Source of the DNA: Naegleria gruberi
Lineage: Eukaryota
Assembly (NCBI GenBank): GCA_000004985.1
Contig: GG738873.1
Strand: one strand, 5' to 3'
DNA: 64,000 nt
The position numbers were made by a program, and so were the translations under genes. How positions within the stretch are numbered: the first letter of the stretch is position 1; every line of letters starts with the position of its first letter. Below the pieces are notes generated by a model. The model was not told the DNA's origin. It did not search any database and saw only the letters and a program-made list of their open reading frames with translations. Below, piece after piece: positions 7,571 through 56,449 of this stretch.

Positions 7571-8383
7571 TTACACTTCGTCATCAACATCATTTAGCTC
7601 CATTCCATTGGAATGTTTTGGTTGGGTTGGTTGATAAAAGTTACTAGTAACATCTTGATTCTCTGGATTAGTAATGCATAGAATTGGAATTTCACAAGCA
7701 AGAAAATATTCTGATGAGGTGGAGCTTACACAATCTGGATCAGAATTACAATTCTCAGAATCTTCTTCTAAACGAGTTAATGTGTGATCAGTTTCATCAT
7801 TAAAAGAAAACGTACGATCTTCTTCGATAGTCTTAATAGTCAACGCTTGTGAACCAACAGTAGACAATGTTGTTGTTGTAGAAAAGAGAGATGAAGTTGA
7901 TTGTGGATAAACCTTATTATCTGACTTGTTTCTGAGAGATCCTAGTCTTGGCATGGAGAGACCTCTCTTTGGTTTTGAAGGTAAATTATCAAGGGAGGAT
8001 GTGGTGGAGTGTGTTGAAGAGATGGTTCTAGCAGTGGTGGAAGTACTAAGGAGAGATGAAGTTGGTCTATAACATGTGGATGAGGTGGAAAGTGTTCTCG
8101 AGGTGCTATTAGTAGCAGTATGTGTTGTAGCAGAGGAAATGGTTGAAGAGAGTGAATTAACCTTAATAAAGAAGGCAGGCTTGGCACTTGGTTTACGAGT
8201 CAGTATATCGACCAGTTTGTTTCCACTCTTACTAGTTTCATCATCCTTCTTCAAACTCTTCTGACTTGTCTTTTTGAGGCTTGATGATGACGACGATGAA
8301 TCACTTAGGACGGTTACTGTCGTCGAGGTTGTATTTGAATTTACAGCTGAGTTTCCCATTTTCCTTAGTCGAGAGAGAAACAA
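7571..8383 (-). CDS. Ser/Thr-rich hypothetical protein (MGNSAV.. N-terminus)
   Basis: 270-aa ORF, S/T-rich low complexity typical of dictyostelid proteins; true start may be the internal MGNSAVN Met at 8359. Confidence 0.45.
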   Translation of the reverse strand: MFLSRLRKMGNSAVNSNTTSTTVTVLSDSSSSSSSLKKTSQKSLKKDDETSKSGNKLVDILTRKPSAKPAFFIKVNSLSSTISSATTHTATNSTSRTLSTSSTCYRPTSSLLSTSTTARTISSTHSTTSSLDNLPSKPKRGLSMPRLGSLRNKSDNKVYPQSTSSLFSTTTTLSTVGSQALTIKTIEEDRTFSFNDETDHTLTRLEEDSENCNSDPDCVSSTSSEYFLACEIPILCITNPENQDVTSNFYQPTQPKHSNGMELNDVDDEV

Positions 8384-9562
8384 TGTTATATGTCTATTAA
8401 ATATTTACACGAGGTTGAGAGGTTTGTTATTTTTGAACGTTTACGTTACGAGTATATGAAGTAAACGTTGTCGAGGAGGTTCTTGTGTTGTTATTTTTTT
8501 CTTAGTGGGAGTTTGCCTGCCCCAAAGGGAAGCATGTGCTCTTGTTGAACGCAAGGCGAATTGCATTGATCTCTTTTTGAGGTTAAATAGCTTGAAAAAA
8601 GAGATTTTTTACTGCAACGAATAAGGAGTCGAATACAGTGATTTTATAAAAGAAGCTAAGGAAGATGAATAAGGTAAATGCAAGGAATTGTTTTCGCTCT
8701 CGTTATTTTTTTAAAATATTCGGTAGAGTTTGTTATTCGTCCAAGTTTGGGTCTGTGAGAAACAAACATGTGAATGATGGCTCATCAGCTCAAAATCCAA
8801 CCTCTGCAATTGTTGAATTATTCTTGTTGGTGAAGATATTGATGATGAATTAATAATGTATCCATCTCCTTAAAGTTAGTTAGCTTGTTCCAAAGAATCA
8901 AAAGAATAAATTGCTCAGAATCATCTCTGTAGTGTGGCTCACAAAAGCTGTATTGATTTTTACAGTTTCTGTTGAGGGGTTTGAGGAAGGTCGTAAATGG
9001 AACGAGCACAAGAAAGTAAAGAATTTTTTCGATAATCTCTTTTTACCTTGTTTGAGTGAATATCACGCGCAGCTCAATAACAGAGATTTTTCTGTATTAT
9101 GTACAACATTGTTTTCAAGGCGAACAAAAGGTTCATTTGTAACAACTCGCTCAATTCATTGGTCATAATTTGAATTCGGGGAATACTCTTCAAAAATTAG
9201 TTTTCAAATCTAGAAACATTTTCACCTGGTGCCCAACTCTCAATATATTTAACATAATTTTGAAAGGTGAAGGTAAGAGTTATAACTGTAAATAAACTGT
9301 AAACAATTTTTTTTTCTTTCCTTGTCGAATAGTATCACGCCAATTTATCCATTACCTCCATACCACAAGGTATGCACATTCATTGTAAACTTTTGAAACC
9401 CTACATTGTAATTTCTATCTCAGAACAAAATTATTGTCCTAATCCTCTTCCAGGCCTGATAGTTGACCTGAAAATTGAAATGAATCTTCAAACAAAACTC
9501 CGCAACAGAAACTTTGTGCTTCTCAAAATCAGCGCCTTGTTTCAACAAACACAACAAAAAAA

Positions 9563-11014
9563 ATGCAACATCATACCGTCAGATTATACTCGTTGCTGCT
9601 CATGTTGTTGGTTAGCACAGCGTTGATATGTTCGACATGGACTTTTTCAGCAGCTGTAGAAGGATCAAAACTACCAAGAATAACAACAACAACTATGGAT
9701 TATACTCCATTATTTATGCACTTGGCATTTACATCAGTGCCGACTGAGATGGTGGTTTCATTTCATACCAATGATTATGATGAAAAGATTTTGGGTAAAC
9801 CTTTTGTAAAATATGGAAAGGAGGATACATTAAAGATTGGAGCTAAAGTTTCGTGGATTGGAGCTGTGATTACTCAATATGGTGATGTGAAACATACTGG
9901 ATACGATTTTAATATTTTAATGAAGGATTTGGAATATCAAACCAAGTATTATTATCAAGTTGGGTTTTTGGGAAGTAATGTAACTTCTGGTGTTTATAAT
10001 TTCCATACCAGAACTGATCCAAGATCAATTGATAGTTTTGAAACTACAGTTGTCATGTATGGAGATCAGGGAACAACCAATTCAAAGTATGCCATTGCTC
10101 AAGTTGAGAATTTTATTCATTCTTTTTACAATGACAAGTCGGCAAAGAATATGTTTATTTATCATTTAGGTGATATTTCATACGCTGATGATTGGCCTGG
10201 AATTTTATATCAAGTAATCTGGGCTCGTTATTTAGACATGATGTCAAACATTATGCCATTTGTATCTTACATGACCTTGCCTGGAAATCATGAAAAGGGA
10301 CCAAAAATTCCACCTTATCATTCCTACGAAGAAGGATTTGTTGCTTACAATCATAGATTCTTCATGCCACTCAGAAATGATTCTCGCTTTGGACATAACA
10401 TGTGGCACTCTTTCCAACATGGTCCAATTACCTTTGTGAGTATTGACACCGAAACCAATTTCCCTCACAATTTCTATCCTGAGTACGATTTTAAGGGAGA
10501 TCAAATGAAGTGGTTAGACGAAACTTTGAGCAAAATTGATAGAAAGGTAACACCTTGGGTTATAGTTTTAGGACATAGACCAATTTATACTTCAAAGCAT
10601 GGATTTAGTAATGCTGAAGGTATTCCAGAAGGTCAAGCCATAATTGTCCAAGATGCATTTGAAGAAATATTGTACAAGTATCATGTTGATATTGCCACAT
10701 TTGGGCATGTTCACTCGTATCAGAGAACTTTTCCTACGTACAAGTTACAAGTAGAAACCAAGACTAATTATCACAATTTAAGATATCCTATTCACATTAT
10801 TAATGGAGCTGGTGGTTGCTTGGAAGGAATTACTATTTTCATGCACAAATATTCACCTTGGAGTGCAAAAATTTTCAATGAAGATGAAGCATATGGAATT
10901 TTGAGAACCTCCTATAATCCAACAACCAGAGTACACAAGATTACCTTCAATTTGCATGCTGCTAAAACTAATGAAATTGTAGACACTGTAACAATAACCA
11001 AAGATGCCTATTAA
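9563..11014 (+). CDS. Purple acid phosphatase-like metallophosphoesterase (secreted)
   Basis: All five PAP metal-ligand motifs in order: 'YGDQG', 'GDISYAD', 'LPGNHE', 'VLGHRPIY', 'GHVHSYQR'; N-terminal signal peptide; single exon; A-rich context before ATG. Confidence 0.9.
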   Translation: MQHHTVRLYSLLLMLLVSTALICSTWTFSAAVEGSKLPRITTTTMDYTPLFMHLAFTSVPTEMVVSFHTNDYDEKILGKPFVKYGKEDTLKIGAKVSWIGAVITQYGDVKHTGYDFNILMKDLEYQTKYYYQVGFLGSNVTSGVYNFHTRTDPRSIDSFETTVVMYGDQGTTNSKYAIAQVENFIHSFYNDKSAKNMFIYHLGDISYADDWPGILYQVIWARYLDMMSNIMPFVSYMTLPGNHEKGPKIPPYHSYEEGFVAYNHRFFMPLRNDSRFGHNMWHSFQHGPITFVSIDTETNFPHNFYPEYDFKGDQMKWLDETLSKIDRKVTPWVIVLGHRPIYTSKHGFSNAEGIPEGQAIIVQDAFEEILYKYHVDIATFGHVHSYQRTFPTYKLQVETKTNYHNLRYPIHIINGAGGCLEGITIFMHKYSPWSAKIFNEDEAYGILRTSYNPTTRVHKITFNLHAAKTNEIVDTVTITKDAY

Positions 11015-31969: not shown

Positions 31970-33255
31970 TTACAACAAGATTCCAAACAATGCCAAAACA
32001 GCAATGACAACAATACTTCCAATCTTGACACTACTTGCACTTGAAACAGTTCCTGATGCAGATTTATCCTCAGCACCTATTTACATTCAATTTTCAATAT
32101 CAATTTTCATATTGATTTCAACAATGTTAAATATTAATATTAATTATTATACTTACCAAGAGAAGGATCCCAATTCAAATTATCAACTCTTTCAGTCAAT
32201 GAAGCATAAAATCTAACAACACTTGCAAATGTTAAATCCTTCTTCAATGCACTTGTTGCAGCATTAAGTGAAAAATCAGATTTCAAAGCAGTTGTCACCA
32301 ATTGACTCTTTGTAATTCCAGCACTCAATGTACTATATTTGGAAACAAAGGTTTGGAATGACAAGTATGGATTTGGTAATTCAAAACCGTCTGGCAAATT
32401 CCATGAAGAGAAGAAACTTGTCTGATTGAATTGAATGACTTTTTGATCTGATGTGGCTGTGTCTGGTCTTTCTTCAGCCAAAATGTTTCTTGCACGTGGT
32501 TTCTCAAAGATTGCACCTCTGAATGCAACCAAAGTGCTGATACCTAACTTGGAATTGGCATTGGAATATTTAATTCCAGTGATTTCTAATGAAGATTTGA
32601 AAGATGAAGGGACCAAAACTTGAGTGACAGTTCTACTGACAAGTGTCTTGGATTCAAATGAAACTTCATTAGTAGTAATGAATCCAGTGAATGTAACTGT
32701 ACAGAAATTAGGAATATCAACACTTGAAACAGCCTTATACACAGCAGCACTTCCATCACTTGTCAAATCTGTCTTGGTTACAGAAATAACCTTCCATGAC
32801 AATCCAACAAGTGAATACTCCTTAACAATTGAATCAGCAGTATTTGGTTGATAACCAGGAGTACCATCATTATCCAAATACTCAAAAATCGAATCAAAAC
32901 CAAAAGCAACACCAGTATCAATATTAATTGTCAATGGAGCCAACTTGTTTCCTAATTGAATTTTGAAACCAGCACTTGCTGCCATTTTAATCATTGGCAA
33001 TGTAGCAACTGATGCCTCGAACTTTAAGCCAGTGAAAGTGGACAAGGATGCCTTGGTAGTGACATTGAAATCACATGTGGTTCCTGAAGTAAATGTCACT
33101 TGATTGGCTGGAGTAGAGTATTGAACATTTCTCTTACATGAGAGTGAAGTTTGACGGAATTTGAGAGAAATCTCATCCAAAGCATGGATGAACGGTAAAA
33201 GTGAAAACACCAAGCAGAGTGTTAACAAGATATTTTTACAGATATAAAGTTTCAT
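31970..33255 (-). CDS. Secreted Ser/Thr-rich protein with predicted GPI-anchor signal; 2 exons (33255..~32158, ~32080..31970)
   Basis: Signal peptide MKLYICKNILLTLCLVFSLLPFIHA; last exon after a minus-strand GTAAGT intron encodes '..AEDKSASGTVSSASSVKIGSIVVIAVLALFGILL*' (Ser-rich omega region plus hydrophobic tail). Confidence 0.6.
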
Positions 33256-33527: not shown

Positions 33528-35429
33528 TTATTGGATTAAACATTTAGGTTTACCATTATTCGAAACTTGAGAATCCTGTAAAAGACAGCACTTTACAATC
33601 AATTCTTTCAATTCTTCAATTCCCACCATTTTCAATGAAGAAACTTCTGTAAATGATAAACATTTCAATTCTCTGGCTAGATTTTCTCCTTCCTCATACG
33701 AAACTATTCTTGGTTTTTCTTTCGAATAAAAATTTTCTCCTGGATTATAATTCCTCAAATCAGATTTTGTTCCCAACAGTAGAATTGGTGTTTTTGGTGA
33801 GTGAAGTCTTGTTTCCTCTACAAAAGTATCCTTAACTCGATGAAAGCTGTCTAAATTGTAGATACTGTACACTACAATGGTAAGATCTGGTGGAGGAGAG
33901 TAGGATAAATATCTAATTATTTCATAATCATATCCTCCAGCTGTATCTCTCATTTGGAGTGTGAATGTTTGATTTTTGAGAGTTACTGGAATTGGATGTT
34001 CACTTTCGAATACTGTTGGGATGTATTCTTGTGGAAATTCATTCATGGCTAGTACTATTTGCATTGAGGTTTTACCAACATTTGATGATCCAATTACGGT
34101 AATTCTAAATTCATGTAAATTATTTTCAGTTTCCTTGACAAGTTGTTGAATGTCTTGTTTTAAAATTTCCTGTTTTGGCTTGAATTGAAATTCAATGAGG
34201 GTTTTAATTCTTCCCAGTTCAATAATGTGATTTTTGGATTGTTGATAAAAAGTTCTTGAATGTAAAGCAAGATTGTAATAATTAACTCCACTACGTCGTG
34301 GGCTCACATTTTGTGATTTGCTTAACAAGAACTTCTTCCATAATTTGTCCTCAATGCTTAGTTGACTAAGTTGACAGTCTTTTCCAATCAATTGAACATT
34401 ATTGAGATCATGAACTGGTAAATATTCCAAAATCATTCTAAAAATGTCTTCGTTTAGCATTGATAACTTTCCATTATTTTCCTTTGCATTGATATTTGAG
34501 ATAGATTGTTGATATTTTCCTCCCCAGACAAAATAATAAACCACAAAGGTTAATTCGTGGGGTGTGTAAATGGTCAATGAATGGAAAACAGGTCCAAATT
34601 CAGAATTATTAAACACTCGAGAGAGAAAATGAAAGTTTTCTTCTCTCCACTCATTCTTCTCTGAGAGGTTTAAACTATGTAGAGTGGTAAAATCATGATT
34701 TGAATTACAACCACCAATCAAGAATAGCCTATCGTTTTCTATCCATGATTTGTGACCATATCTTGAAATATTTTGAGGAATTTTCTTGATTTTACAATTC
34801 AGATACTCAGATTCTGATAAATTTTCTAAATCAATTAGTAAAACGTCATTGATTGGAATATTTCCACTTTGTTTTCCACCTGAAATGATCAACAAATTAT
34901 TGTAAATCAGTGAGGAATGAAAGTATCTCCCCAAAATTTCATTATTTTTCCTATTTTTTAAAGACCGACATTTCCATTCGAAAGTTTTCAAATTTAATTC
35001 GAAAACTTGATTGGAAACAAATCCATCAGAATCATATCCACCAAATATAATCATGGAATCTTTGTAAATCTCAGCAGAATGTCCAAATCTGGGAGAAATA
35101 ACTTGATCATTCACAGTTGTTAGTTTCGTCCATTTTCCAACAGATTCCTTTGAATTAAATTCGAATTGCCAAACATCAGCTAGATATCCATTCGATTTAC
35201 CACCAAATAAAATCATTTTGTGATCATGGGAGATTGCAGAATGGAAATTTCTTGGAGATGGTTTTTCACCTTCCGATAAAATTATTGGAATGCAAGATTC
35301 TGATGAAATTTCATAAACTCTCAACTGATCAGAGTATTCGTTTTGATTGGCACTTTCGAGTAATCCACCAAAAATTAAAATATATTCATTGTTGATATTG
35401 ACGGATGTGTGACCGATGAGTTTTGACAT
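33528..35429 (-). CDS. Kelch-repeat + F-box-like + Rho-family small GTPase fusion protein with CAAX box
   Basis: N-terminal Kelch blades ('IFGGL','ILFGGKSNGYLADVWQF','IIFGGYDSDG','LIGGC'); 'LNEDIFRMILEYLPVHDLNNVQLIGKDCQ..LWKKF' F-box-like; C-terminal GTPase 'VIGSSNVGKTS','IPTVFE','DTAGGYDYEIIRYLSY','LLGTKSDLR', ends ..PKCLIQ (CaaX). Confidence 0.75.
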   Translation of the reverse strand: MSKLIGHTSVNINNEYILIFGGLLESANQNEYSDQLRVYEISSESCIPIILSEGEKPSPRNFHSAISHDHKMILFGGKSNGYLADVWQFEFNSKESVGKWTKLTTVNDQVISPRFGHSAEIYKDSMIIFGGYDSDGFVSNQVFELNLKTFEWKCRSLKNRKNNEILGRYFHSSLIYNNLLIISGGKQSGNIPINDVLLIDLENLSESEYLNCKIKKIPQNISRYGHKSWIENDRLFLIGGCNSNHDFTTLHSLNLSEKNEWREENFHFLSRVFNNSEFGPVFHSLTIYTPHELTFVVYYFVWGGKYQQSISNINAKENNGKLSMLNEDIFRMILEYLPVHDLNNVQLIGKDCQLSQLSIEDKLWKKFLLSKSQNVSPRRSGVNYYNLALHSRTFYQQSKNHIIELGRIKTLIEFQFKPKQEILKQDIQQLVKETENNLHEFRITVIGSSNVGKTSMQIVLAMNEFPQEYIPTVFESEHPIPVTLKNQTFTLQMRDTAGGYDYEIIRYLSYSPPPDLTIVVYSIYNLDSFHRVKDTFVEETRLHSPKTPILLLGTKSDLRNYNPGENFYSKEKPRIVSYEEGENLARELKCLSFTEVSSLKMVGIEELKELIVKCCLLQDSQVSNNGKPKCLIQ

Positions 35430-35508
35430 TTTTTTAATAATTGTTTTCCTGTTAAATAGGTAAAGATGAAGGTTCTATCAACACATTCTTGTAAACATTT
35501 GTGTGAAA

Positions 35509-35566
35509 TCGGGTGTGGTATAGTGGTAGCATTCCAGACTGTCACTCTGGCGACCCGGGTTCAATT
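35509..35566 (+). pseudogene. Truncated tRNA-Asp(GUC) gene remnant (5' 58 nt; T-stem 3' half and acceptor 3' strand missing)
   Basis: tcGGGTGTGGTATAGTGGTAGCATTCCAGACTGTCACTCTGGCGACCCGGGTTCAATT: D-arm, perfect anticodon stem CCAGA/TCTGG with loop CTGTCAC (anticodon GTC), T-stem 5' half CCGGG and T-loop TTCAATT, then non-complementary TGTTTTG. Confidence 0.5.
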
Positions 35567-36159
35567 TGTTTTGTTAGTGTGTATGAGTTAGTAATGAATG
35601 ATATCGGTTAATCCTTATTTGGAAATTTCATTCCCGGTACCCAAAGTATGAACGAGAGTTTTGACTATGTGAAATCAAATTGTTTATTGCTCGAGTGCCT
35701 TTTGATCAAGAAGTTACAGTTATGAATAATTATCAAGAAATTCAATTCCCGGCACTCGAGTTTAATTTTTGACTCTGTCTCCAATTTTTAATATTTGATA
35801 ATTAAAAAATACAAAGACAGTTGTCTATTCTACCTATTTCTCAATTTTTATAGCTTTATTTCTTAAAATCATAGAGATAATAACCTCTTCTCAAACCCTA
35901 TTTTCAATTTAAAAATTTCTGCTAATCATGCTTTATAACATGGATGGATCAAAATAATGGATTGGTTGGTTAAATTGTAATAAACTAGATTCTTCCAGTT
36001 GAATTGGTAACTCTTAAACAATTCCTCACTTGCAGTAAGATAAAGAAATATCACAAAATATAGTGCTCACTACTGAATTTCTCATTTATCCGATGAAAAC
36101 AATATATTGTTGATCAGTTTTTAATGAATAGTGAAAGGAAGCGAAATTACAAACATGTA

Positions 36160-36232
36160 GCCCGTCTAGCTCAGTCGGTAGAGCGCAAGGCTCTTAACCT
36201 TGTGGTCGTGGGTTCGACCCCCACGGTGGGCG
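36160..36232 (+). tRNA. tRNA-Lys (anticodon CUU)
   Basis: GCCCGTCTAGCTCAGTCGGTAGAGCGCAAGGCTCTTAACCTTGTGGTCGTGGGTTCGACCCCCACGGTGGGCG folds as cloverleaf (7-bp acceptor with 2 G-U pairs, D-arm GCTC/GAGC, anticodon loop CTCTTAA, T-arm GTGGG/CCCAC); near-identical to metazoan tRNA-Lys-CTT. Confidence 0.9.
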
Positions 36233-36412: not shown

Positions 36413-39400
36413 CTAGAAATTTTGAATGTCAGCACTTGTTGGTCTCATACTTGGTTCCTTTGAGACCATAGTCACAATAAAATTGCAAAGCTTCTCAGAG
36501 TAACCTCTTGATATCAAGTGTTCCATTGTTCTGTCCAACACCACTTCTTCCTTATCGTATAATAATTGAGCTGTAATGTTTAAATCTAAGGAATCATTTG
36601 CCATGGCCTGAATGAGTGAAACTCCAAGTGAAAATATATCAGCACTATAACTGTATTTTCTAGAAAAGACCTCAGGTGCCATATATTGCAATGTTCCTGC
36701 AACTGAATTTTGAGTTTCTCCAGTTTCCTTTGCCTCTCCATAATCACCAATAACCACTTGGATTTCATCCAATTCACGGTCCAATTTACTATAGAAAATA
36801 TTACGTGGTTTGATATCTCTGTGAACAATTAGTTTCTCTTGGTGAAGATAGTTCAAACCATCTCCAAGTTGTTTCATGATGGAGATGATCATCTTCTCAG
36901 AGACAATCTTTCCATCTTGTTTCAAATCTTTCAAGGCATGTTCCAAGTCGCCTTCATAAAATTTCATTACAATACAAATAGATTGAATAATCTGTGCTTC
37001 AAAGAATTCATAAACTTCAACCAGATTTGCATGTCTGTATGAAAGTGTTTTGGAACATTCATCAATAATTTTAGAATGTCTGCTTTGATCATAACTAATA
37101 GTCTTGATGGCAACTGGCATGTCATTCTTTTTAGAATCCAAACAGAGATAACATTTACCAAATGCACCCTGACCAATAACTTGTTGAATCTTGTATCTAT
37201 CTTTGAGCAAAGAATGATCTGTGTTTTGAGTAGAAGAAGTAGTAGTTGTGTTAGTATTGGAAGTATTGGAAGACAATTGGTACAAGGAATTGTTAAAGGT
37301 ATCGCTTGGGAAATCTGAAGTCACTGATGTACTATTATTGGCTGTTTGAGTGACATTTTCATCAATGGTTGTTATCATTTCAATTGGTTTTTCCTTAGTA
37401 ACCAGTGGTTTGCTTTTCTTCTTCTTTAATTTCACAATGAGACAGATGGTGACAATGATTGCAAGCAATATTAACAATACCAATAATGTTAAACCCACAA
37501 CCAATCCAACAATCAATCCAATGTTAGAATTAACTGGAGTAGTCACTTGTCCATTCTTGGATGCAAGTGGAGAGACATAGGTAGGAGGAACAATTCTATT
37601 CTCACAACTCAATCCACTATATCCTTCCAGACATGAACAACCATTACTTGATGTACATGTTCCATTTCCACTACAATTTTTCACGGCATCACAAGAGAAG
37701 AGGGAACAATCGAGACTTCCCTTCCATCCACTAGTGCATGAGCATGTATTATTACTCACACAGAAACCATGTCCTGAACAGGCATTCAATGTTTCACATG
37801 AGAAGAGAGAGCAATCAGAACTTCCTCTCCAGCCAGAATAACACGAACAATTGTTCATTACACAATCTCCATGTCCACTACATTGATTCTGTAGGTCACA
37901 ACCAAAAGAGATTGCTCTCACCTTTCCATTACTTGTGTCAGCAATGAAAATTTTAGATTCATCAGCAGAGAGAGCTACTCCCATTGGTCCATAAAATTGA
38001 GTTTCCAAAGGGTGCAAATTCTCTCCATTGTATCCATACAGTGGTGCAGTACCAGCAATGGTTATCAAAGTTCCATTCTTAAATAATTTCCTTATGGCAT
38101 GGTTTTGGGAATCAGAAATCAATAGTTCATCATTGGATAAAATGGCAAGACCAGCAGGATATCTCAACATTGAATTAACACCACTCAAATTCTCCCCACT
38201 ATATCCATCCACCCCAGTTCCTGCAATGGTAATGAGGGTTCCATCATTGAGAATTTTTCTCACTCGATGGCCTTCATACTCTGAAAAAATAACTTCATTA
38301 TTAGAGGTCAGTACAATTCCATATGGATTATTAATATTGGCACTAGTTGCTAATAGCCCATCTCCATTGTAGGTAGAAGTACCGGTACCAGCTACAGTAA
38401 TGATGGTCTGATTGAAAAACACTTTTCTAATTCGATGATTTCCAGAATCGGTAATGTACAAATCTCCATTTGTGGATCTGGCAATTCCTTTTGGTAAATT
38501 TAAATGAGCACTAGTAGCAGGAATGTTATCAGCATTGTATCCAGTAGTTCCAGATCCAGCTTTTGTTATTACAATTCCACTAGAAGATATGAGATATTTC
38601 ACAGTTGACGAATCAACAAAATAGTACTCCCCTACATTGGGCACGAGTGGAGATCTGGGTGAAATATAACTTGGAGTAATGGTTGTGATAATTCCACCGA
38701 GTGAAATCTTTCTCAATCTATAATTTCTTGTGTCGGCCACAATAACCTCATTATTTGGAGCGACAGCAACCGATTCTGGACCAAAGAGTTTTGCCTTCAC
38801 TGCCTCAATATTATCACCATTGTAGCCGAGATTGGAACCTGTTCCAGCAACAGTAGTGATGATATTGTTTGTGTTAATCTTTCTGACTCTGTAATTTCCA
38901 CCATCGGAAATGAAAATCTCCCCACTCGAGGATATAGCAATGCCTCTTGTGACTCTGAACATGGCATTGGATGCCAATTGATTGTCTCCAGCATAGCCAT
39001 ATGATGATCCAGCTATTAATGTTGCAACTCCATTCGTTTGAATCATGTACACTTTATCTGAAACAGTGACATAGAGAGCACCAGTGATTGGAGATATTGC
39101 CATTCCATTGACTGTATTAGTCTGGCCAGAGAGTTCAAAAGTAGTGAACATGACTACACTGGTGCCATTATTGAAAACCTTTCTAATCTTGTCATATTCT
39201 CCAATGTAAACTTCTCCACTATTAGAGATGGCAATGGAAGTGGGGAAGTTTAACTGTGCATTAGTTGCATCCTGTACCACAGTGGATGTATCTGTTCCAC
39301 CTCCAGCGAATGTTCTAATGATACCATCCGTATACGAAACTACACGAATTTTGTTATTTGAGGTTTCTGCAATATATAAATTATTATTCACAGGAGAGAT

Positions 39401-39961
39401 GACAATTCCACCTGGTGTATTCAATAGTGCATTGGTAGCGACTCCATCATCACCGATACTCCCTGGTACACCAACTTGACCAGCGTATGTGCTAATCAAA
39501 TTACTAGATAATATGACCTTTCGAATAACATGACTATTCGTATCAGACAAGTACATGACATCACTATTCTGAAAAGCAAGTGCACTAGGATAATTGAAAC
39601 GAGCCAAAGTTGCTATAGTTGTCGTGACAGAACCAGGAATACCCACACCAGCAATTGTTTTAATTTTACCACTACTTGCCACTACTTGTCTCACTCGACA
39701 ATTTATCTTGTCAACTATGAAAATGTCACCATTGTTACTTGGAGAGAGTGCAAGACCATCAGGTATGGCAATTTCTGCCTTGGTAGCATCAATGTTATCA
39801 CCATTGTAACCATTGGGATAACTACCTGCTATGGTTTTTACATGGTATAAAGATTGACCGTGGACAATTGGTTGGGCAGCAAGAAACACCAAGTGAAACA
39901 AAAACAACAATGGTAGCAAGAATGTTGAGCTATTAGTGTTGTTGAGTTTCAATTTGTCCAT
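36413..39961 (-). CDS. Receptor-like protein kinase: signal peptide, multiple NHL repeats, tenascin-type EGF repeats, single TM, cytoplasmic kinase domain
   Basis: NHL-like blades ending in ..RVRKI/..RIRKV/..RLRKI (x8 or more); 'CSGHGDCVMNNCSCYSGWRGSSDCS..CSGHGFC..CSGNGTC' EGF units; TM 'IGLIVGLVVGLTLLVLLILLAIIVTICLIV'; kinase motifs 'IGQGAFGKCY','VAIKTI','HRDIKPRNIF','GDYGEA','YMAPE','DIFSLG'. Confidence 0.85.
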   Translation of the reverse strand: MDKLKLNNTNSSTFLLPLLFLFHLVFLAAQPIVHGQSLYHVKTIAGSYPNGYNGDNIDATKAEIAIPDGLALSPSNNGDIFIVDKINCRVRQVVASSGKIKTIAGVGIPGSVTTTIATLARFNYPSALAFQNSDVMYLSDTNSHVIRKVILSSNLISTYAGQVGVPGSIGDDGVATNALLNTPGGIVISPVNNNLYIAETSNNKIRVVSYTDGIIRTFAGGGTDTSTVVQDATNAQLNFPTSIAISNSGEVYIGEYDKIRKVFNNGTSVVMFTTFELSGQTNTVNGMAISPITGALYVTVSDKVYMIQTNGVATLIAGSSYGYAGDNQLASNAMFRVTRGIAISSSGEIFISDGGNYRVRKINTNNIITTVAGTGSNLGYNGDNIEAVKAKLFGPESVAVAPNNEVIVADTRNYRLRKISLGGIITTITPSYISPRSPLVPNVGEYYFVDSSTVKYLISSSGIVITKAGSGTTGYNADNIPATSAHLNLPKGIARSTNGDLYITDSGNHRIRKVFFNQTIITVAGTGTSTYNGDGLLATSANINNPYGIVLTSNNEVIFSEYEGHRVRKILNDGTLITIAGTGVDGYSGENLSGVNSMLRYPAGLAILSNDELLISDSQNHAIRKLFKNGTLITIAGTAPLYGYNGENLHPLETQFYGPMGVALSADESKIFIADTSNGKVRAISFGCDLQNQCSGHGDCVMNNCSCYSGWRGSSDCSLFSCETLNACSGHGFCVSNNTCSCTSGWKGSLDCSLFSCDAVKNCSGNGTCTSSNGCSCLEGYSGLSCENRIVPPTYVSPLASKNGQVTTPVNSNIGLIVGLVVGLTLLVLLILLAIIVTICLIVKLKKKKSKPLVTKEKPIEMITTIDENVTQTANNSTSVTSDFPSDTFNNSLYQLSSNTSNTNTTTTSSTQNTDHSLLKDRYKIQQVIGQGAFGKCYLCLDSKKNDMPVAIKTISYDQSRHSKIIDECSKTLSYRHANLVEVYEFFEAQIIQSICIVMKFYEGDLEHALKDLKQDGKIVSEKMIISIMKQLGDGLNYLHQEKLIVHRDIKPRNIFYSKLDRELDEIQVVIGDYGEAKETGETQNSVAGTLQYMAPEVFSRKYSYSADIFSLGVSLIQAMANDSLDLNITAQLLYDKEEVVLDRTMEHLISRGYSEKLCNFIVTMVSKEPSMRPTSADIQNF

Positions 39962-52720: not shown

Positions 52721-55700
52721 ATGCTACCATCATATCTTGCCAACTCTCCTGCCAGTGAAAATAACCAAGAAACTAATGTGGAATTCAATGAACAACACTC
52801 TCTAAAGAGAAAGAAAGAAGAAATAGACAAGGAATTGAAAGCTTGGGAGATTTTTGATGAAGTTAACAAGTACAAAGATGAACCATCTTTCAAGAAGGCC
52901 AAAAAAGCACTCAACCAGACTGAATGTTGTCCTGCAGGTCGTAACTTGATTGATAATGTCTTTATGCAAGATTGTGAATCATCTGATAATGATTCTTCCT
53001 CAGATGATGACCAAAGTAATGGTGCTTATAAGAAATCATGTTTAGGATTGTACAAGAGTGCAATTCCAAGCAAGGCATCCTGTATTATGGATACTTCTGA
53101 AGAATTACCATCAATCATTATCCCAGCTAGAAGAAGAAGAAAGAGTGCCAATACAAATAGTCCAACTTCACCAACTATTCCATCAAACGTTACTAATGAA
53201 CAAGTAACAACATTGGCTAATGTTTCTTCTGCACGTTCTGCAAAGAAATGGAACTCTTTCGAAATGATGCCTCACGGTATTTTGGTATTCATAATGTCAT
53301 ACATTTCTCAACCAATGATCATTCATGCAATGATGGCTGTTTGTAAGAGATGGTACCAAATCTCCAAGTTCAGTACACTTTGGAAGAGAATTGATTTTAA
53401 TGGTTCATTCAAGATCAAATCAATGAGTGATGTTGTTGGTTTCCTCGAAGACTTTACCACTTTAAAGATTTCTGACATGAGAAAGACCTATGCATTAGGT
53501 TCTACTGTGCTCATGGAATCTTTGGGAGGATTAGGTCAAAAGGAAGTTATTTACAATGTCCAACAATATGAATATGGTCTTTCTCTCCAAAAACAAGAAC
53601 AATTAGGTATCTATAAGAATGGTGGAGTTTTACTCCCACCAAAGAAATCCAGAATGCCTCACCTTTTTGGTGAAATCATTTTACCTGCTTCTTGTTCAAA
53701 CCTCTCTGTTGAAACTTTTGAAAAGTTGAAAGAGGTTTATCCATCCTTGTCTAAATTGGTTCTTCCAATGTGTTCTACAATTTCCACAGTTTCTAATACT
53801 GGTGCATTTCCTATCAATGCTGATAACAATTCCAGAATTCAATTCAATACTGAAGACATTGAAAACAGTATTTCTGATTCTGTACTATTGCAAATTGCCA
53901 AGATGCCATATTTGAGCTATCTTAAAGTATCTACTCATCACAAGTTAACTGATCAAGGTTTGAATGAATTTTCCATTCTTTCAAAGAGACTTGAATCCAT
54001 TGAACTTGACTATTGTTTGGGTTTGACTCAGCAATCACTCTTGCATCTTGTAAAGAATAGCAAACATATTAACACTATTAGTGCTCTCAGCAATGGAAAC
54101 ATTGTTTTGGGAGATCAAGAACTTGTAGAATTATCCCAATATGGTTCTCATTTAAAAGAATTGAGAATTGATGTTTCAAATATTTCTCTTCCATCCTTCG
54201 CTACCTTTATTAAGGGTTGCAGAAGACTCCAAACTTTATTTATTAGAGGTCTTGATTGTATTACTGATAAGACCCTCGATGTTATCTTTGCCGAGCTCCG
54301 TTACATTCGTAATATTACAATTATTTGTGAGAGCCCTGAGAAGACTGCTACAAACAAAATCTTCTCTACAACAATTTCTAGCACCACCTTAGAATCCTTC
54401 CAAATTACTGGTTGTGAGACTTTGAACATTTCCTTTGATCATTGCACCAACTTGAAGAAAGTATCTATTGACCAATGCAAGAGCTTGACTGGTCTTCAAA
54501 TTTCTAACTCCTTACTTGTTGATGAACTAAAATTCAGAAGTAGTAACATTGCATATGTGAACCTTTCACAATTGATAAATTCATTGCCAAAGTTGAGAGA
54601 GTTTGAACTCTTTGATTGCCAATCAGGAGAAACAAACAAGACTGTTACTTTCAATTCTGATATTATGAGAAAGATTATTATTCTCATGTGTAACGACATT
54701 ATCAACCTTGAAGTTTTATGTAGTAATCTTAGATCTATGAGCGTTGATTTGTGTGCCAACATTGAAAAGTTGATTCTCAAGAGTCCAAAGTTGGAAAATT
54801 TACAAATGTTTGCTCTTCCTCAATCAGCTACTCCAAAGCTCAAACATTTATTTGTTGAAAGTGATCATATCCAATCTTTGAACTTGCAAAAGATTCTCTC
54901 ACTCGAACAAATTGCAGTCAAGTGCAAGTCTTTGGATTCACTCAATGTTTCCAACCTTCATCAACTCAGAAGATTGGAAACTGGACCATGTCCAAAGCTT
55001 GAAAAGTTAGCCCTAGGAAGTGTCTTCCTCTTATTTGATGATCATCTTGTATCCAATATTATTAGCAAGTGTCCAAATATTAGTATGTTGAGCATTTCCA
55101 ATAGTGTATCATTGAATGATGTATCACTTGGAGTTTTGTGCAACAATTTGCCAAACCTTCAAGCTCTTGTCATTTCCAATTGCCAACGTTTGTGGAATGT
55201 CAACATTCAATCATCTGTACTTAAAGGTATCCAAATCTCAGATTGTCATCTCCTCAAGTATTTAAACTTGAAGAGTGAAAATCTTAACAAGTTATTCATT
55301 AGAAATTGTCCAAATGTTGAAGATTCTACATTTGATAACCTCTCTGCCTTCAGTCCAAATATCAAGTTTGTAGAGTTGGTTAATTGTAGTATGCTCAAGT
55401 CACCACATCTCAAGCTTCCACAACTTGTCGATCTCCATTTCAGAGAATGTGCCCAATTAGAAGTTCCAACCATTACTTCTGAATATTTGAAAAAGTTGTT
55501 GATTGTTTCTTGCACAAAGTTTTCTCACTTTAATGCTCAATCAGCAACCCTCTCTGAAATTTTACTCTCTGAATGTCCAAACTTGAACGAAGCTAATCTT
55601 ACAAAGAGTCTTTCCCAAACCGAAAACATTCAAGCTATTGTTTTCGATAAGTGTAAGGCCCTTAGAGCTCCTCAATTGAATCTTGATAACCTCAAGCTCG

Positions 55701-56449
55701 TTAGATTTACCTCATGTAATAATCTTGTCAATCCAAAGATTAATATTAGAGGTAATTTGTCTGTTCTCTCCTTCCAACATTGTGATAACATCAAGATTGA
55801 AAAGTTGAGCACCAACATTACTGGACAAAATATTGATAATATTGAAATTACTGAATGCAAGGGAATGACCAAACTCTCTTGTGATTTACCAACTAAGAGT
55901 TTGAGTGTTAGTGGATGTTCCAAACTTTCCTCTCTCACTCTTTCTCAAACCATTCAAACAATCCTTGTTGAAAAATGTCAAGCTCTCTGTACTATTCAAT
56001 GCCCACAAGAATGCCGTGTGACTGAGCTTAAAGTTAAGGATTGTGAACAATTCTCCTCTGTTCAATTTAGTGGACCAAATCAAGATATGAAGATTCTTGG
56101 ATTTTCAAGATGCCCACGTTTATCTGATATGTGTTTAGCATCCATGTTAAGCAAGTGCCAAACTCTTGAAAAGGCAAGATTAAGTGCTTGCGGTCTTGCT
56201 CGTCCATTTATTAATCATGCCAATTTATCTACTTTACATATTTCTCATTGTCAATACTTGGAAAGAATGAGATTAAAATGTCCAAAGCTTATTACCCTCA
56301 AACTCAATGATTGTCAAGCTTTAAATTCTGTTGTATTTGCTGAAGCTTCACCTGAGCTTAAGAATGTAACATTGAAAGGGCTTTCTGTCTGTGCATCTGA
56401 TAGAGAACTTTTGATGAGATGTTCCAACTCTAGTGTTGCCTCACAATAA
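52721..56449 (+). CDS. F-box / leucine-rich-repeat (FBXL-type, Cys-containing LRR) protein, 1242 aa
   Basis: F-box 'MPHGILVFIMSYISQPMIIHAMMAVCKRWYQISKFSTLWKRIDF'; more than 25 LRR_CC units (..CxNLxxLxLxxCxxLTD..); single exon. Confidence 0.8.
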   Translation: MLPSYLANSPASENNQETNVEFNEQHSLKRKKEEIDKELKAWEIFDEVNKYKDEPSFKKAKKALNQTECCPAGRNLIDNVFMQDCESSDNDSSSDDDQSNGAYKKSCLGLYKSAIPSKASCIMDTSEELPSIIIPARRRRKSANTNSPTSPTIPSNVTNEQVTTLANVSSARSAKKWNSFEMMPHGILVFIMSYISQPMIIHAMMAVCKRWYQISKFSTLWKRIDFNGSFKIKSMSDVVGFLEDFTTLKISDMRKTYALGSTVLMESLGGLGQKEVIYNVQQYEYGLSLQKQEQLGIYKNGGVLLPPKKSRMPHLFGEIILPASCSNLSVETFEKLKEVYPSLSKLVLPMCSTISTVSNTGAFPINADNNSRIQFNTEDIENSISDSVLLQIAKMPYLSYLKVSTHHKLTDQGLNEFSILSKRLESIELDYCLGLTQQSLLHLVKNSKHINTISALSNGNIVLGDQELVELSQYGSHLKELRIDVSNISLPSFATFIKGCRRLQTLFIRGLDCITDKTLDVIFAELRYIRNITIICESPEKTATNKIFSTTISSTTLESFQITGCETLNISFDHCTNLKKVSIDQCKSLTGLQISNSLLVDELKFRSSNIAYVNLSQLINSLPKLREFELFDCQSGETNKTVTFNSDIMRKIIILMCNDIINLEVLCSNLRSMSVDLCANIEKLILKSPKLENLQMFALPQSATPKLKHLFVESDHIQSLNLQKILSLEQIAVKCKSLDSLNVSNLHQLRRLETGPCPKLEKLALGSVFLLFDDHLVSNIISKCPNISMLSISNSVSLNDVSLGVLCNNLPNLQALVISNCQRLWNVNIQSSVLKGIQISDCHLLKYLNLKSENLNKLFIRNCPNVEDSTFDNLSAFSPNIKFVELVNCSMLKSPHLKLPQLVDLHFRECAQLEVPTITSEYLKKLLIVSCTKFSHFNAQSATLSEILLSECPNLNEANLTKSLSQTENIQAIVFDKCKALRAPQLNLDNLKLVRFTSCNNLVNPKINIRGNLSVLSFQHCDNIKIEKLSTNITGQNIDNIEITECKGMTKLSCDLPTKSLSVSGCSKLSSLTLSQTIQTILVEKCQALCTIQCPQECRVTELKVKDCEQFSSVQFSGPNQDMKILGFSRCPRLSDMCLASMLSKCQTLEKARLSACGLARPFINHANLSTLHISHCQYLERMRLKCPKLITLKLNDCQALNSVVFAEASPELKNVTLKGLSVCASDRELLMRCSNSSVASQ

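Follow-up and report, generated by a model that had tools for sequence, protein, structure and literature searches.

Introduction

RhoBTB proteins, which occur in animals, Dictyostelium and Naegleria, have a Rho-BTB-BTB organization and act as Cul3 adaptors, such that an atypical, GTPase-deficient Rho is fused to a cullin-RING adaptor module. FBXL2 and FBXL20 are SCF substrate receptors anchored to membranes by a prenylated C-terminal CaaX box, which directly follows the LRRs and is geranylgeranylated (CVIL). Human FBXO42 and the plant FBK proteins (ZTL/FKF1, AFR) use an F-box and a Kelch propeller as a receptor, with the F-box N-terminal to the propeller and no GTPase. LZTR1 (Kelch-BTB-BACK) is a CRL3 adaptor for RAS-family GTPases that lacks a GTPase domain and binds its GTPases in trans, and its Kelch domain has been solved with KRAS, MRAS and RIT1. 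RhoH and the Rnd proteins, the latter of which are farnesylated, have other residues in place of Gly12 and Gln61 within an otherwise intact nucleotide pocket. Hydrolysis by Ras and Rho proteins is abolished when G12 and Q61 are substituted, and such changes are characteristic of RhoH, Rnd and RhoBTB. Canonical SCF receptors carry their substrate-binding domain on the C-terminal side of the F-box.

GTPase domains have been recruited repeatedly into protist ubiquitin-ligase adaptors, as seen in ARF-family GTPases fused to F-box or BTB domains (Vargova et al., 2021; PMC8358228), although those fusions involve another GTPase family, other lineages and no Kelch domain. For Naegleria, Additional Files 4 and 10 (Table S8) of Herman et al. 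(2021; PMC8296547) list Rho ("Rac") genes of N. gruberi and N. fowleri with "Kelch, F-box", and Table S8 attaches the label "BTB" to some paralogues. The same source describes the Kelch/F-box Rho proteins as divergent, lineage-specific paralogues and proposes GTPase-dependent ubiquitination for Naegleria F-box-GTPase fusions. This catalogue is the only description of Kelch-F-box-Rho proteins that we found in the literature. Because such genes are already listed there, we conclude that the architecture is known but uncharacterized; the fusion, which the original prediction had set apart from textbook architectures, is not new. Here we describe one such gene, located within a 64,000-nucleotide stretch of N. 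gruberi contig GG738873.1 (assembly GCA_000004985.1), which we refer to as the window.

Results

One reading frame encodes the Kelch, F-box and Rho modules

The encoded protein is identical (100% over 100% of its length) to the NCBI entry "rho family small GTPase [Naegleria gruberi]". From N- to C-terminus, its modules are a Kelch propeller, an F-box, a linker, a Rho domain and a CaaX box, and the features of the gene are as follows:

33528..35429, minus strand: complete coding sequence from the open reading frame list, with an ATG start and 633 codons plus a TAA stop
34491..35429, minus strand: six-bladed Kelch beta-propeller, aa 1-313, likely the substrate-binding module (Pfam, AlphaFold2, Foldseek)
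34308..34478, minus strand: variant F-box, aa 318-374, with the core LNEDIFRMILEYLPVHDLNNVQLIGKDCQLSQLSIEDKLW (family-level profile evidence)
34125..34307, minus strand: linker, aa 375-435, with low conservation and predicted flexibility (AlphaFold2, comparison of homologues)
33603..34124, minus strand: atypical Rho-family GTPase domain, aa 436-609 (Pfam Ras, PDB matches)
34068..34091, minus strand: P-loop GSSNVGKT, aa 447-454, with GxxxxGKT intact and Ser as the Gly12 equivalent (sequence and alignment)
33933..33947, minus strand: start of switch II, DTAGG, aa 495-499, with Gly as the equivalent of the catalytic Gln61 (sequence and alignment)
33759..33770, minus strand: G4 motif TKSD for guanine specificity, aa 554-557, intact (sequence and alignment)
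33531..33542, minus strand: C-terminal CaaX box CLIQ, aa 630-633, of the farnesyltransferase type (X = Gln) (sequence)

These features, all on the minus strand, confirm the original prediction of one 633-residue frame in which Kelch, F-box-like, Rho and CaaX segments each lie where they had been placed, and the motifs it quoted (P-loop GKT, PTVFE, TKSD and CLIQ) are all present in the translation. The frame is unbroken, and no intron is needed to read from the Kelch domain through the Rho domain. A frame of 633 codons would be free of stops by chance with P ~1.5e-21, as computed at the window GC content of 34%. Residues 333-455 include no in-frame Met, which indicates that the Rho part does not have a start codon of its own. 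Judged from this frame, the Kelch, F-box and CaaX-bearing Rho modules are a genuine fusion within a single polypeptide. A tRNA-Asp-like fragment upstream received no support from ARAGORN or Rfam.

The propeller resembles those of cullin-RING substrate receptors

Seven Kelch-type Pfam families score above threshold in the protein, including PF24681 (E=2.1e-41) and PF24981 (E=4.2e-31). AlphaFold2 predicts with confidence a six-bladed propeller at aa ~1-305 with four strands per blade, for which block-mean pLDDT values are mostly 80-96 as far as about aa 260, whereas the last blade scores lower, at 57-84. In a 16-sequence alignment of the family, the blade-defining GG/W/R positions are invariant columns. 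Using Foldseek, we found that the propeller matches Kelch propellers at E=1e-21 to 1e-16, with KLHDC2 (1.7e-21) and LZTR1 (3.3e-19) followed by FBXO42 and Keap1 among the best matches. The resemblance to LZTR1 is also seen in a match to the Attractin/LZTR1 Pfam family (4.2e-31), and the rmsd between the solved LZTR1 Kelch domain and the propeller is ~3.2 A; sequence identity is ~20% only. According to the predicted model, the propeller is of the type by which cullin-RING ligases capture substrates, with CRL substrate receptors as its nearest solved structures.

The F-box is a divergent, lineage-specific variant

When searched on its own, the N. gruberi segment matched the Pfam F-box PF00646 at 12.7 bits (E=0.12), which is below the cut-off of 20.5, and the match covers only positions 1-24 of the 43 in the profile. 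A phmmer search of the segment alone against the PDB likewise returned no significant match. The segment deviates from the F-box consensus by an LP to LN change, by a W to C change in the CKxW motif and by a two-residue insertion. AlphaFold2 places helices at 327-335, 339-348, 353-357 and 361-373, with pLDDT values of 57-69 only.

The family gives a different result. In co-linear homologues, the aligned segment is a significant Pfam F-box at 27-47 bits, and the N. lovaniensis segment of the same variant scores 29.5 bits. An F-box profile built from the family matched FBXW7, beta-TrCP, FBXL5 and Skp2 in the PDB at 1e-12 to 1e-8, with matches almost exclusively to F-box proteins. Furthermore, comparison by hhalign of the N. 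gruberi segment with an F-box profile free of Naegleria sequences gave 84% probability (E=8e-6). The LN variant and the two-residue insertion are common to other heterolobosean members, with LN found in all other Naegleria and Willaertia members. Its conservation across Naegleria, Willaertia and metagenomic relatives implies selection, not decay. The variant preserves the hydrophobic pattern of helices H1-H3, and the F-boxes of amoebozoan proteins with the same architecture are fully canonical, with LP.

Taken together, this family-level evidence supports a divergent, lineage-specific F-box and overrides the sub-threshold score of the single sequence. The earlier designation of an "F-box-like segment" is thus not recovered from the N. 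gruberi sequence alone in Pfam or the PDB but is upheld by the homologues, the family profile and hhalign. Failure in a profile search, which the original prediction had named as grounds for refutation, did occur for the single sequence against Pfam and is outweighed at the level of the family. Nevertheless, Skp1 binding by the predicted F-box could be weakened, given the sub-threshold score, the lost Pro and Trp, the insertion and an AlphaFold2 confidence of 57-69.

The Rho domain retains nucleotide-binding residues and lacks catalytic ones

Between the F-box and the Rho domain, AlphaFold2 pLDDT values fall below 50 (aa 371-437), and the length of the linker differs among homologues. The Rho domain, for which the fold is predicted with confidence by AlphaFold2, matches Pfam Ras PF00071 at E=3.3e-29 (aa 443-613), and its best 60 PDB matches are all Cdc42, TC10, Rac or RhoA, with Cdc42 at the top (4e-32). 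The alignment with Cdc42 is ungapped through the Rho-insert region "DLRNYNPGENFYSKEKPRIVSYEE", which also aligns with the inserts of Rac1, Cdc42 and RhoA. All G motifs are present, namely GSSNVGKT, PTVFE (within YIPTVFES), DTAG, TKSD and VSSL. In the 16-sequence alignment, the nucleotide-binding residues G447, G452, K453, T454, T472, D495, G498, K555, D557 and S597 are invariant or nearly so.

The catalytic positions differ. The P-loop of human Rac1 and Cdc42 reads GDGAVGKT, whereas that of the N. gruberi protein reads GSSNVGKT, which places Ser at position 12, and the position of Gln61 is occupied by Gly. Gln61 is absent from 15 of the 19 Kelch-F-box-Rho and F-box-Rho members, in contrast to its presence in 31 of 34 single-domain Rho controls. 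Within the family, the N. gruberi copy is the most divergent in the Rho domain, with W56 replaced by R, RLRPLSY by IIRYLSY and one residue added before PxxD. The residues at positions 12 and 61 place the domain among atypical, presumably non-cycling members of the Rho family, like those of RhoH, Rnd and RhoBTB, and are compatible with family membership. Because both Gly12 and Gln61 are replaced and Gln61 is missing from most of the family, the domain is probably locked with GTP and would not work as a switch. The "complete" Rho GTPase that had been predicted is therefore complete with respect to nucleotide binding but not catalysis, and the suggestion that the fusion places a GTP switch on an F-box protein is unlikely to hold.

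According to established CaaX rules, S, M, A, Q or C at the X position specifies FTase and L or F specifies GGTase-I, such that CLIQ is a predicted farnesylation signal. Among the 18 family members ending in a CaaX box, 13 have Gln at the X position, compared with 2 of 18 control Rho proteins, and the CaaX Cys is invariant in the 16-sequence alignment.

The architecture is shared by Heterolobosea and Amoebozoa

To define the family, we used an exhaustive profile search with clustering at the 50% identity level, and the relatedness of the fused genes was judged by shared derived characters. Local HMM mapping of domain order identified the co-linear arrangement of Kelch, F-box and Rho in 23 clusters, which derive from N. 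lovaniensis, N. fowleri (two paralogues), Willaertia, Acrasis, Balamuthia (two), Pelomyxa and Stenamoeba. Five of the matches (P0021, P0026, P0028, P0033 and P0036) extend in a single stretch over profile positions ~21-669, and the Stenamoeba members are Trinity transcripts with open reading frames of 657 and 659 aa. The position of Kelch ahead of the F-box, which had been flagged as atypical, is real and conserved across the family. The original prediction had also pointed to "related amoebozoan proteomes"; the host, N. gruberi, belongs to Heterolobosea, but amoebozoans do carry the same fusion.

Other arrangements occur as well. N. lovaniensis encodes F-box-Rho paralogues without Kelch (P0110 and P0123), and such paralogues are also listed for N. 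gruberi in Herman et al. (2021; PMC8296547). In the amoebozoan relatives Pelomyxa and Physarum, a permuted Rho-Kelch-F-box order is found in which nothing follows the F-box, and a Cochliopodium protein (P0011) has Kelch and F-box in that order without Rho. A word-indexed homologue search using the 16-sequence alignment recovered neither further family members nor N. gruberi paralogues. The N. gruberi protein is 31% identical to P0002 of N. lovaniensis. No synteny with the N. lovaniensis locus was found, which leaves orthology to P0002 without support, and we dropped P0002 as a candidate orthologue for this reason. The sequence relationships indicate that the gene is one paralogue within a multigene family of Naegleria F-box-Rho proteins.

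Discussion

A candidate SCF counterpart of RhoBTB-Cul3

RhoBTB was the comparison offered in the original prediction, with BTB/Cul3 there and an F-box here, and it is the right one. RhoBTB has its Rho domain at the N-terminus and works through BTB and Cul3, whereas the N. gruberi protein has an F-box of the Skp1/Cul1 type, a C-terminal Rho domain with a CaaX box and an added Kelch propeller. No BTB domain was matched by Pfam in the protein even at E<=1, and none was found in P0002. Membership in RhoBTB is ruled out by the lack of tandem BTB domains and the C-terminal Rho, and the protein is, by analogy, a putative functional analogue of RhoBTB and not one of its members. The other systems differ in similar detail. 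Unlike FBXL2 and FBXL20, which share with it membrane anchoring of an SCF receptor through a CaaX box (predicted in this case), the N. gruberi protein has a farnesyl-type CaaX box that forms part of a whole Rho domain. Compared with FBXO42 and the plant FBK proteins, the order of F-box and Kelch is reversed. RhoH and Rnd proteins, which share the substitutions at positions 12 and 61, are small single-domain vertebrate proteins that are unrelated by descent to the Kelch-F-box-Rho family.

As the most likely function, we propose that of an SCF substrate receptor that is farnesylated, anchored to membranes and comparable to RhoBTB-Cul3, a model to which we assign roughly even chances. It agrees with the published proposal of GTPase-dependent ubiquitination for Naegleria F-box-GTPase fusions (PMC8296547), and a comparable suggestion exists for the F-box and BTB fusions of ARF-family GTPases (PMC8358228). 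Docking of the predicted F-box on Skp1-Cul1-Rbx1 would make the protein a receptor for substrates of the SCF ligase. The Rho module, carrying a farnesyl group, would hold GTP and, because it would barely hydrolyze it, would not operate as a timer switch; instead, it would serve as a constitutive module for targeting to (or gating at) the membrane and partners. The Kelch propeller would offer substrates for ubiquitination at the membrane site, and the whole protein would constitute the SCF counterpart of RhoBTB-Cul3. The assignment of the propeller as substrate receptor is an assumption, because the Rho domain and not the propeller holds the canonical place C-terminal to the F-box.

Alternative explanations

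The protein may instead be a scaffold built on an atypical Rho and unconnected to any ubiquitin ligase, in which Skp1 binding has been lost, the F-box is a helical spacer or dimerization element, and a GTP-locked, membrane-anchored Rho is joined to a Kelch interaction domain. The 12.7-bit Pfam score, the non-significant PDB search, the LN, Cys and insertion changes and the moderate-to-low AlphaFold2 confidence of the F-box are all consistent with this explanation. However, the same variant is kept in several heterolobosean genera and many paralogues, passes as an F-box in N. lovaniensis and against the Naegleria-free profile, and retains the H1-H3 hydrophobic pattern, and amoebozoan members of the same architecture have canonical LP F-boxes. 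We consider a scaffold of this kind unlikely.

We regard as decidedly unlikely an arrangement in which Rho is cargo or bait and not an anchor. The SCF ligase could ubiquitinate the fused Rho, which would provide the built-in turnover that was the second idea of the original prediction, or a GTP-locked Rho in the receptor position could bring in Rho effectors or GAPs to be ubiquitinated. The place immediately C-terminal to the F-box, which in SCF receptors usually belongs to the substrate-binding domain, is taken by the Rho domain, and in the Kelch-less paralogues P0110 and P0123 Rho is the only candidate binding module. On the other hand, the propeller resembles those of CRL substrate receptors, and the permuted Pelomyxa and Physarum proteins end at the F-box, which shows that the position of Rho after the F-box is not conserved.

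A more elaborate proposal, which we hold to be very unlikely, is that Kelch-F-box-Rho proteins form a functionally undescribed class of SCF receptor common to the unrelated supergroups Heterolobosea and Amoebozoa. A permanently GTP-loaded, farnesylated Rho in the receptor position would act as an "active-Rho decoy" that brings Rho effectors or GAPs to the ligase, and the LZTR1-like propeller would bind small GTPases, either its own Rho in cis or others in trans. Together, these modules would make up a degrader with selectivity for nucleotide state, and the very large Rho networks of amoeboid cells would be shaped by it. The sharing of the architecture between the two supergroups might reflect ancient inheritance or amoeba-to-amoeba gene transfer.

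It is highly improbable that the gene belongs to a birth-and-death family as a paralogue now decaying toward a pseudogene, with F-box and GTPase residues that are odd due to relaxed constraint. This idea draws on the unusual Rho residues of the most divergent family member, its 31% identity to P0002 and the lack of synteny with N. lovaniensis. Herman et al. (2021; PMC8296547) report pseudogenes and birth-and-death evolution for related F-box-GTPase groups and found that the Kelch/F-box Rho lacks a 1:1 orthologue between species. Yet the 633-codon frame is intact, with P~1.5e-21 by chance; the nucleotide-binding residues, the GG/W/R blade positions and the CaaX Cys are all retained as invariant family columns; and both the propeller and the Rho fold are confidently predicted. 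Finally, the chance that a gene model has merged adjacent Kelch/F-box and Rho genes is virtually nil, given the continuous, stop-free frame, a Rho part without its own start codon and the co-linear architecture in at least 8 named species, including the transcript-derived Stenamoeba frames.

Significance for amoeboid protists

The gene described here and the catalogue of Herman et al. (2021; PMC8296547) share the organism, gene family and domain combination, a likeness at the level of the family and not of one accession. Those tables are a catalogue only, in which homologues from Amoebozoa, the absence of Gln61, the LN variant of the F-box and the Gln-type CaaX do not figure. Our analysis adds to it the systematic loss of the catalytic Gln, the predominance of Gln (farnesyl) CaaX boxes and the same domain order in Heterolobosea and Amoebozoa. 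For the ubiquitin and Rho fields, the protein is a curiosity with precedent that overturns nothing. The model of a membrane-anchored SCF receptor leads to the predictions that the Rho domain is GTP-locked, that the protein is farnesylated and that it binds Skp1. If true, one polypeptide would physically couple Rho signaling to SCF ubiquitination, and the RhoBTB-Cul3 principle would have been invented a second time, independently, and expanded to a gene family in amoeboid protists that include the brain-eating pathogen N. fowleri.

Gene structure and neighborhood

The Kelch-F-box-Rho gene of N. gruberi is a 633-codon ORF with an ATG start at window 33528..35429 (-), and its translation matches the NCBI/UniProt entry 'rho family small GTPase [Naegleria gruberi]' with 100% identity over the full length. 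This match identifies the host as a heterolobosean amoeboflagellate rather than the amoebozoan assumed in the original prediction. At the window's GC content of 34%, the chance of 633 sense codons in succession is ~1.5e-21, and inspection of the whole frame revealed no stop codon. Met codons occur in frame at aa 1, 72, 126, 324, 332, 456, 462, 493 and 601, and the Rho domain, which begins at ~aa 438, has no start codon belonging to it alone. We rejected the possibility that two adjacent genes had been misread as one, based on the open frame, the lack of a separate Rho start, the co-linear homologs and the Stenamoeba transcripts described below. The fusion of all three modules in a single polypeptide is thus genuine, and every motif originally quoted for it was located.

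Met324 and Met332 (window 34440-34460 (-)) both lie at the extreme start of the F-box, and aa 333-455 contain no Met. Speculatively, an internal start at either codon could yield an F-box-Rho product like the Kelch-less paralogs, which include the N. lovaniensis proteins P0110 and P0123 and the 'F-box' Rac rows of Table S8 in Herman et al. (2021; PMC8296547). The surrounding sequence contains the following features:

32140-33255 (-): 371-aa ORF directly downstream of the gene, with a signal-peptide-like N-terminus (MKLYICKNILLTLCLVFSLLPFIHA)
~35505-35575 (+ sense): stretch 75-145 nt upstream of the ATG, resembling by eye the 5' two-thirds of tRNA-Asp(GTC)
36160-36232 (+): tRNA-Lys(CTT) gene in the intergenic spacer that separates the Kelch-F-box-Rho gene from the next ORF upstream (ARAGORN; Rfam tRNA, 66.4 bits)
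36413-39961 (-): 1182-aa ORF, by eye a receptor-like protein with a hydrophobic N-terminus, many NHL-like repeats, EGF-like Cys-rich repeats, a transmembrane segment and a C-terminal protein-kinase-like domain
52721-56449 (+): 1242-aa ORF with a canonical N-terminal F-box (local HMM match 53255-53392) and, by eye, a long LRR-like repeat array after it

In the tRNA-Asp-like stretch, the D-arm and the anticodon arm can be made out but the T-arm is broken. Neither ARAGORN nor Rfam (E<=0.1) made a call there, and the stretch could be what remains of a former tRNA or be similar by chance. The 1242-aa ORF is an ordinary F-box-LRR receptor with the usual domain order and has no relation to the Kelch-F-box-Rho finding.

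Kelch propeller and F-box segment

Kelch propeller families scored far above the Pfam threshold (PF24681, E=2.1e-41; PF24981, Attractin/LZTR1, E=4.2e-31). AlphaFold2, supplied with a 16-sequence alignment (mean pLDDT 73.7, pTM 0.53), placed six blades of four strands each within aa ~1-305; block-mean pLDDT was mostly 80-96 as far as about aa 260 and dropped in the last blade. The model also featured a low-confidence linker (aa 371-437) and a well-formed Rho fold (aa 438-618); its low pTM leaves the placement of the domains relative to one another unpredicted. When compared with the PDB using Foldseek, substrate-receptor propellers of cullin-RING ligases ranked first, with matches to KLHDC2 (1.7e-21), to the LZTR1 Kelch domain in complexes with KRAS, MRAS and RIT1 (3.3e-19, rmsd ~3.2 A), and further to FBXO42, KLHDC3, KLHDC10 and Keap1. 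Taken together, these results confirm the N-terminal Kelch propeller.

The segment originally described as F-box-like was less readily recognized. Its match to PF00646 (aa 322-345; 12.7 bits, E=0.12) fell below the Pfam cut-off of 20.5, and as a single query it found no significant match in Pfam or among PDB sequences, formally the outcome that the original prediction had named as refuting it. However, the aligned segment is a significant Pfam F-box in homologs from N. lovaniensis (29.5 bits), Pelomyxa (47.5), Cochliopodium (42.4) and a metagenome (P0004, 44.1), and a five-sequence profile of the segment matched almost exclusively solved F-box proteins (FBXW7, 1.2e-12; beta-TrCP, 7.9e-12; FBXL5; Skp2). 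Using a profile built from non-Naegleria sequences only, which avoids circularity, hhalign aligned the N. gruberi segment over 48 columns with 84% probability (E=8e-6), so that the F-box assignment is supported although the lone segment is sub-threshold. The low score results from two changes: Naegleria, Willaertia and certain metagenomic sequences have Leu-Asn in place of the canonical Leu-Pro, and a two-residue insertion, common to the LN-type sequences and Acrasis, precedes the last helix ('LRICQLT', 'FSLSQLS', N. gruberi 'CQLSQLS'). Amoebozoan members keep the canonical LP-type F-box. Because several heterolobosean members and metagenomic relatives have these changes in common, the alignment points to a conserved lineage-specific variant rather than random decay, and this distinct LN variant, shared among Heterolobosea, appears new relative to the published catalogue. 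The F-box helices predicted by AlphaFold2 (327-335, 339-348, 353-357 and 361-373) had a pLDDT of just 57-69.

Rho domain and predicted lipid anchor

A Ras-type G domain was detected at aa 443-613 (Pfam, E=3.3e-29), and the solved structures that match it are Cdc42, TC10, Rac and RhoA (best 4e-32), with the Rho-insert region aligned to Cdc42 without gaps. The residues that hold nucleotide are invariant or nearly so in the 16-sequence family alignment and are all kept in N. gruberi: G447, G452, K453 and T454 of the P-loop, Y469, P471 and T472 of switch I, D495, K555 and D557 of TKSD, and S597. In contrast, both catalytic positions differ: the equivalent of Gly12 is Ser (GSSNVGKT) and that of Gln61 is Gly (DTAGG). 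Of the 19 Kelch-F-box-Rho and F-box-Rho sequences whose Rho domain is complete, eight have Pro at position 61 (N. lovaniensis, N. fowleri, both Willaertia, Balamuthia-1 and three metagenomic sequences), five have Gly, two Ser and only four Gln. None of the six permuted or Rho-Kelch sequences that align there (four Pelomyxa, Physarum and Copromyxa) has Gln61; the residue is present in 31 of the 34 single-domain Rho proteins that came out of the same search. Loss of the catalytic Gln thus characterizes the family, a point that appears new relative to the published catalogue. The N. gruberi copy is the most divergent elsewhere in the domain too, and its W56-to-R and RLRPLSY-to-IIRYLSY changes would argue against regulation by canonical Dbl-type GEFs.

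Ras and Rho catalysis, together with RhoH, Rnd and RhoBTB, provides the basis for expecting a GTP-bound, non-cycling protein after changes at Gly12 and Gln61. By this analogy, we predict that the Rho domain binds GTP without cycling and would act as a constitutive module, which makes the GTP switch originally proposed for this F-box protein unlikely.

The CaaX box predicted at the C-terminus is present as CLIQ, the last four residues of the protein. A terminal Gln occurs in 13 of 18 CaaX-bearing family members versus 2 of 18 control Rho proteins, in which the box mostly ends in Leu. By standard CaaX rules, Gln at this position directs farnesylation, which suggests that the N. gruberi protein is putatively farnesylated.

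Distribution of the architecture

A profile search run exhaustively against 1.84 billion representative proteins gave many co-linear matches, each full-length and in a single stretch. When the three modules were mapped with local HMMs, 35 proteins emerged in which Rho occurs together with Kelch and/or F-box.

Domain orders among the 35 proteins (local HMM mapping)
Kelch, F-box, Rho: 23
Rho, Kelch, F-box (permuted): 6
Rho, Kelch, F-box undetected: 3
F-box, Rho, without Kelch: 3

Named heterolobosean sources of the co-linear type are N. lovaniensis, N. fowleri (two paralogs), Willaertia magna (two) and Acrasis kona; further sources are Balamuthia mandrillaris (two), Pelomyxa schiedti and Stenamoeba stenopodia. 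The fusion that the original prediction had proposed to seek in amoebozoan proteomes is therefore present, with identical order, in Balamuthia, Pelomyxa and Stenamoeba, and because those from Stenamoeba are ORFs of Trinity transcripts (657 and 659 aa), the fusion is transcribed as a unit there. Pelomyxa and Physarum supply the permuted type, sequences from Copromyxa and Rhizamoeba are among the Rho-Kelch proteins in which no F-box was detected, and Cochliopodium has a Kelch-F-box protein without Rho.

The circularly rearranged amoebozoan version includes P0006, P0063, P0088 and P0097 (Pelomyxa) and P0091 (Physarum), with P0055 (Copromyxa) and P0062 (Rhizamoeba) related. A CaaX box is missing from the rearranged Pelomyxa and Physarum proteins; Copromyxa and Rhizamoeba have CaaX-like ends (CVLQ, CLVM) after the Kelch region, not after the Rho domain.

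In N. lovaniensis, the homolog P0002 spans 2510 bp (8001-10510 of locus L001 on PYSW02000021.1) for a 764-aa product and so must include introns; its N. gruberi counterpart, by comparison, is a single unbroken ORF. The neighbors at L001 (guanylate cyclase, Myb-like, RCC1-like and IFT122-like genes) have no counterparts within the window, in agreement with the absence of orthology described by Herman et al. (2021).

Herman et al. (2021) provided an annotation of the Ras superfamily for both N. fowleri and N. gruberi, and according to their Supplementary Material 4 no other additional domain occurs on Naegleria GTPases (Rab, Rho, Ran, G-alpha) as often as the F-box. In Table S8, N. gruberi 'Rac' entries are labeled 'Kelch, F-box' (XP_002672610.1, XP_002668324.1), 'Kelch' (XP_002676274.1) and 'Kelch, BTB, F-box' (XP_002677266.1), with 'F-box' alone in at least seven rows; several revised models place the propeller first, with an LN-type F-box within. 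The original prediction had called the fusion not a textbook architecture; these rows already list it. Because the table is a full inventory, the window's gene is very probably one of its accessions; if so, our guess would be that it may be the row labeled 'Kelch' only, given how poorly its F-box is detected. Herman et al. suggest GTPase-dependent ubiquitination for the Naegleria F-box-GTPase fusions, and Vargova et al. (2021; PMC8358228) argue along similar lines for ARF-family GTPases that carry a fused F-box or BTB domain. Literature searches turned up no study on the function of a Kelch-F-box-Rho protein. Compared with the catalogue, an apparently new point is that the architecture, domain order included, extends beyond Naegleria to other Heterolobosea and to Amoebozoa, with Gln61 loss and the Gln-type CaaX mostly retained.

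Some Naegleria paralogs carry the 'BTB' label in Table S8; Pfam scans detected no BTB in either the window's protein or P0002. In some paralogs, a long linker separates the F-box from the Rho domain and may hold a divergent domain.

Interpretation

The best-supported reading, to which we give about an even chance, sees the protein as an SCF substrate receptor that is farnesylated and anchored to membranes. In this reading the F-box would dock Skp1-Cul1, the propeller would bind substrates, and the non-hydrolyzing Rho module would provide constitutive targeting to membrane or partners, or gating. RhoBTB-Cul3 and the prenylated F-box protein FBXL2 would be functional parallels but not the same family, as the N. 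gruberi protein lacks both BTB and LRRs. Of the original interpretation, the SCF link and the RhoBTB analogy stand; a switch is improbable, the taxon was incorrect and the architecture had already been catalogued.

An unlikely though credible alternative is that the variant F-box no longer binds Skp1, which would leave merely an atypical Rho scaffold. That the Rho domain itself is the bait or degradation target is rather improbable, although it lies C-terminal to the F-box and F-box-Rho paralogs without Kelch exist. Decay of the N. gruberi paralog is very improbable, as the ORF is intact and the invariant residues are retained, and the likelihood of a gene-model artifact is negligible.

The derived characters that the genes of Heterolobosea and Amoebozoa share favor a probable common ancestry, which would reflect either ancient inheritance with losses or amoeba-to-amoeba transfer. 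Interest in the finding would grow only if a decoy or degrader role, or transfer across supergroups, were demonstrated.
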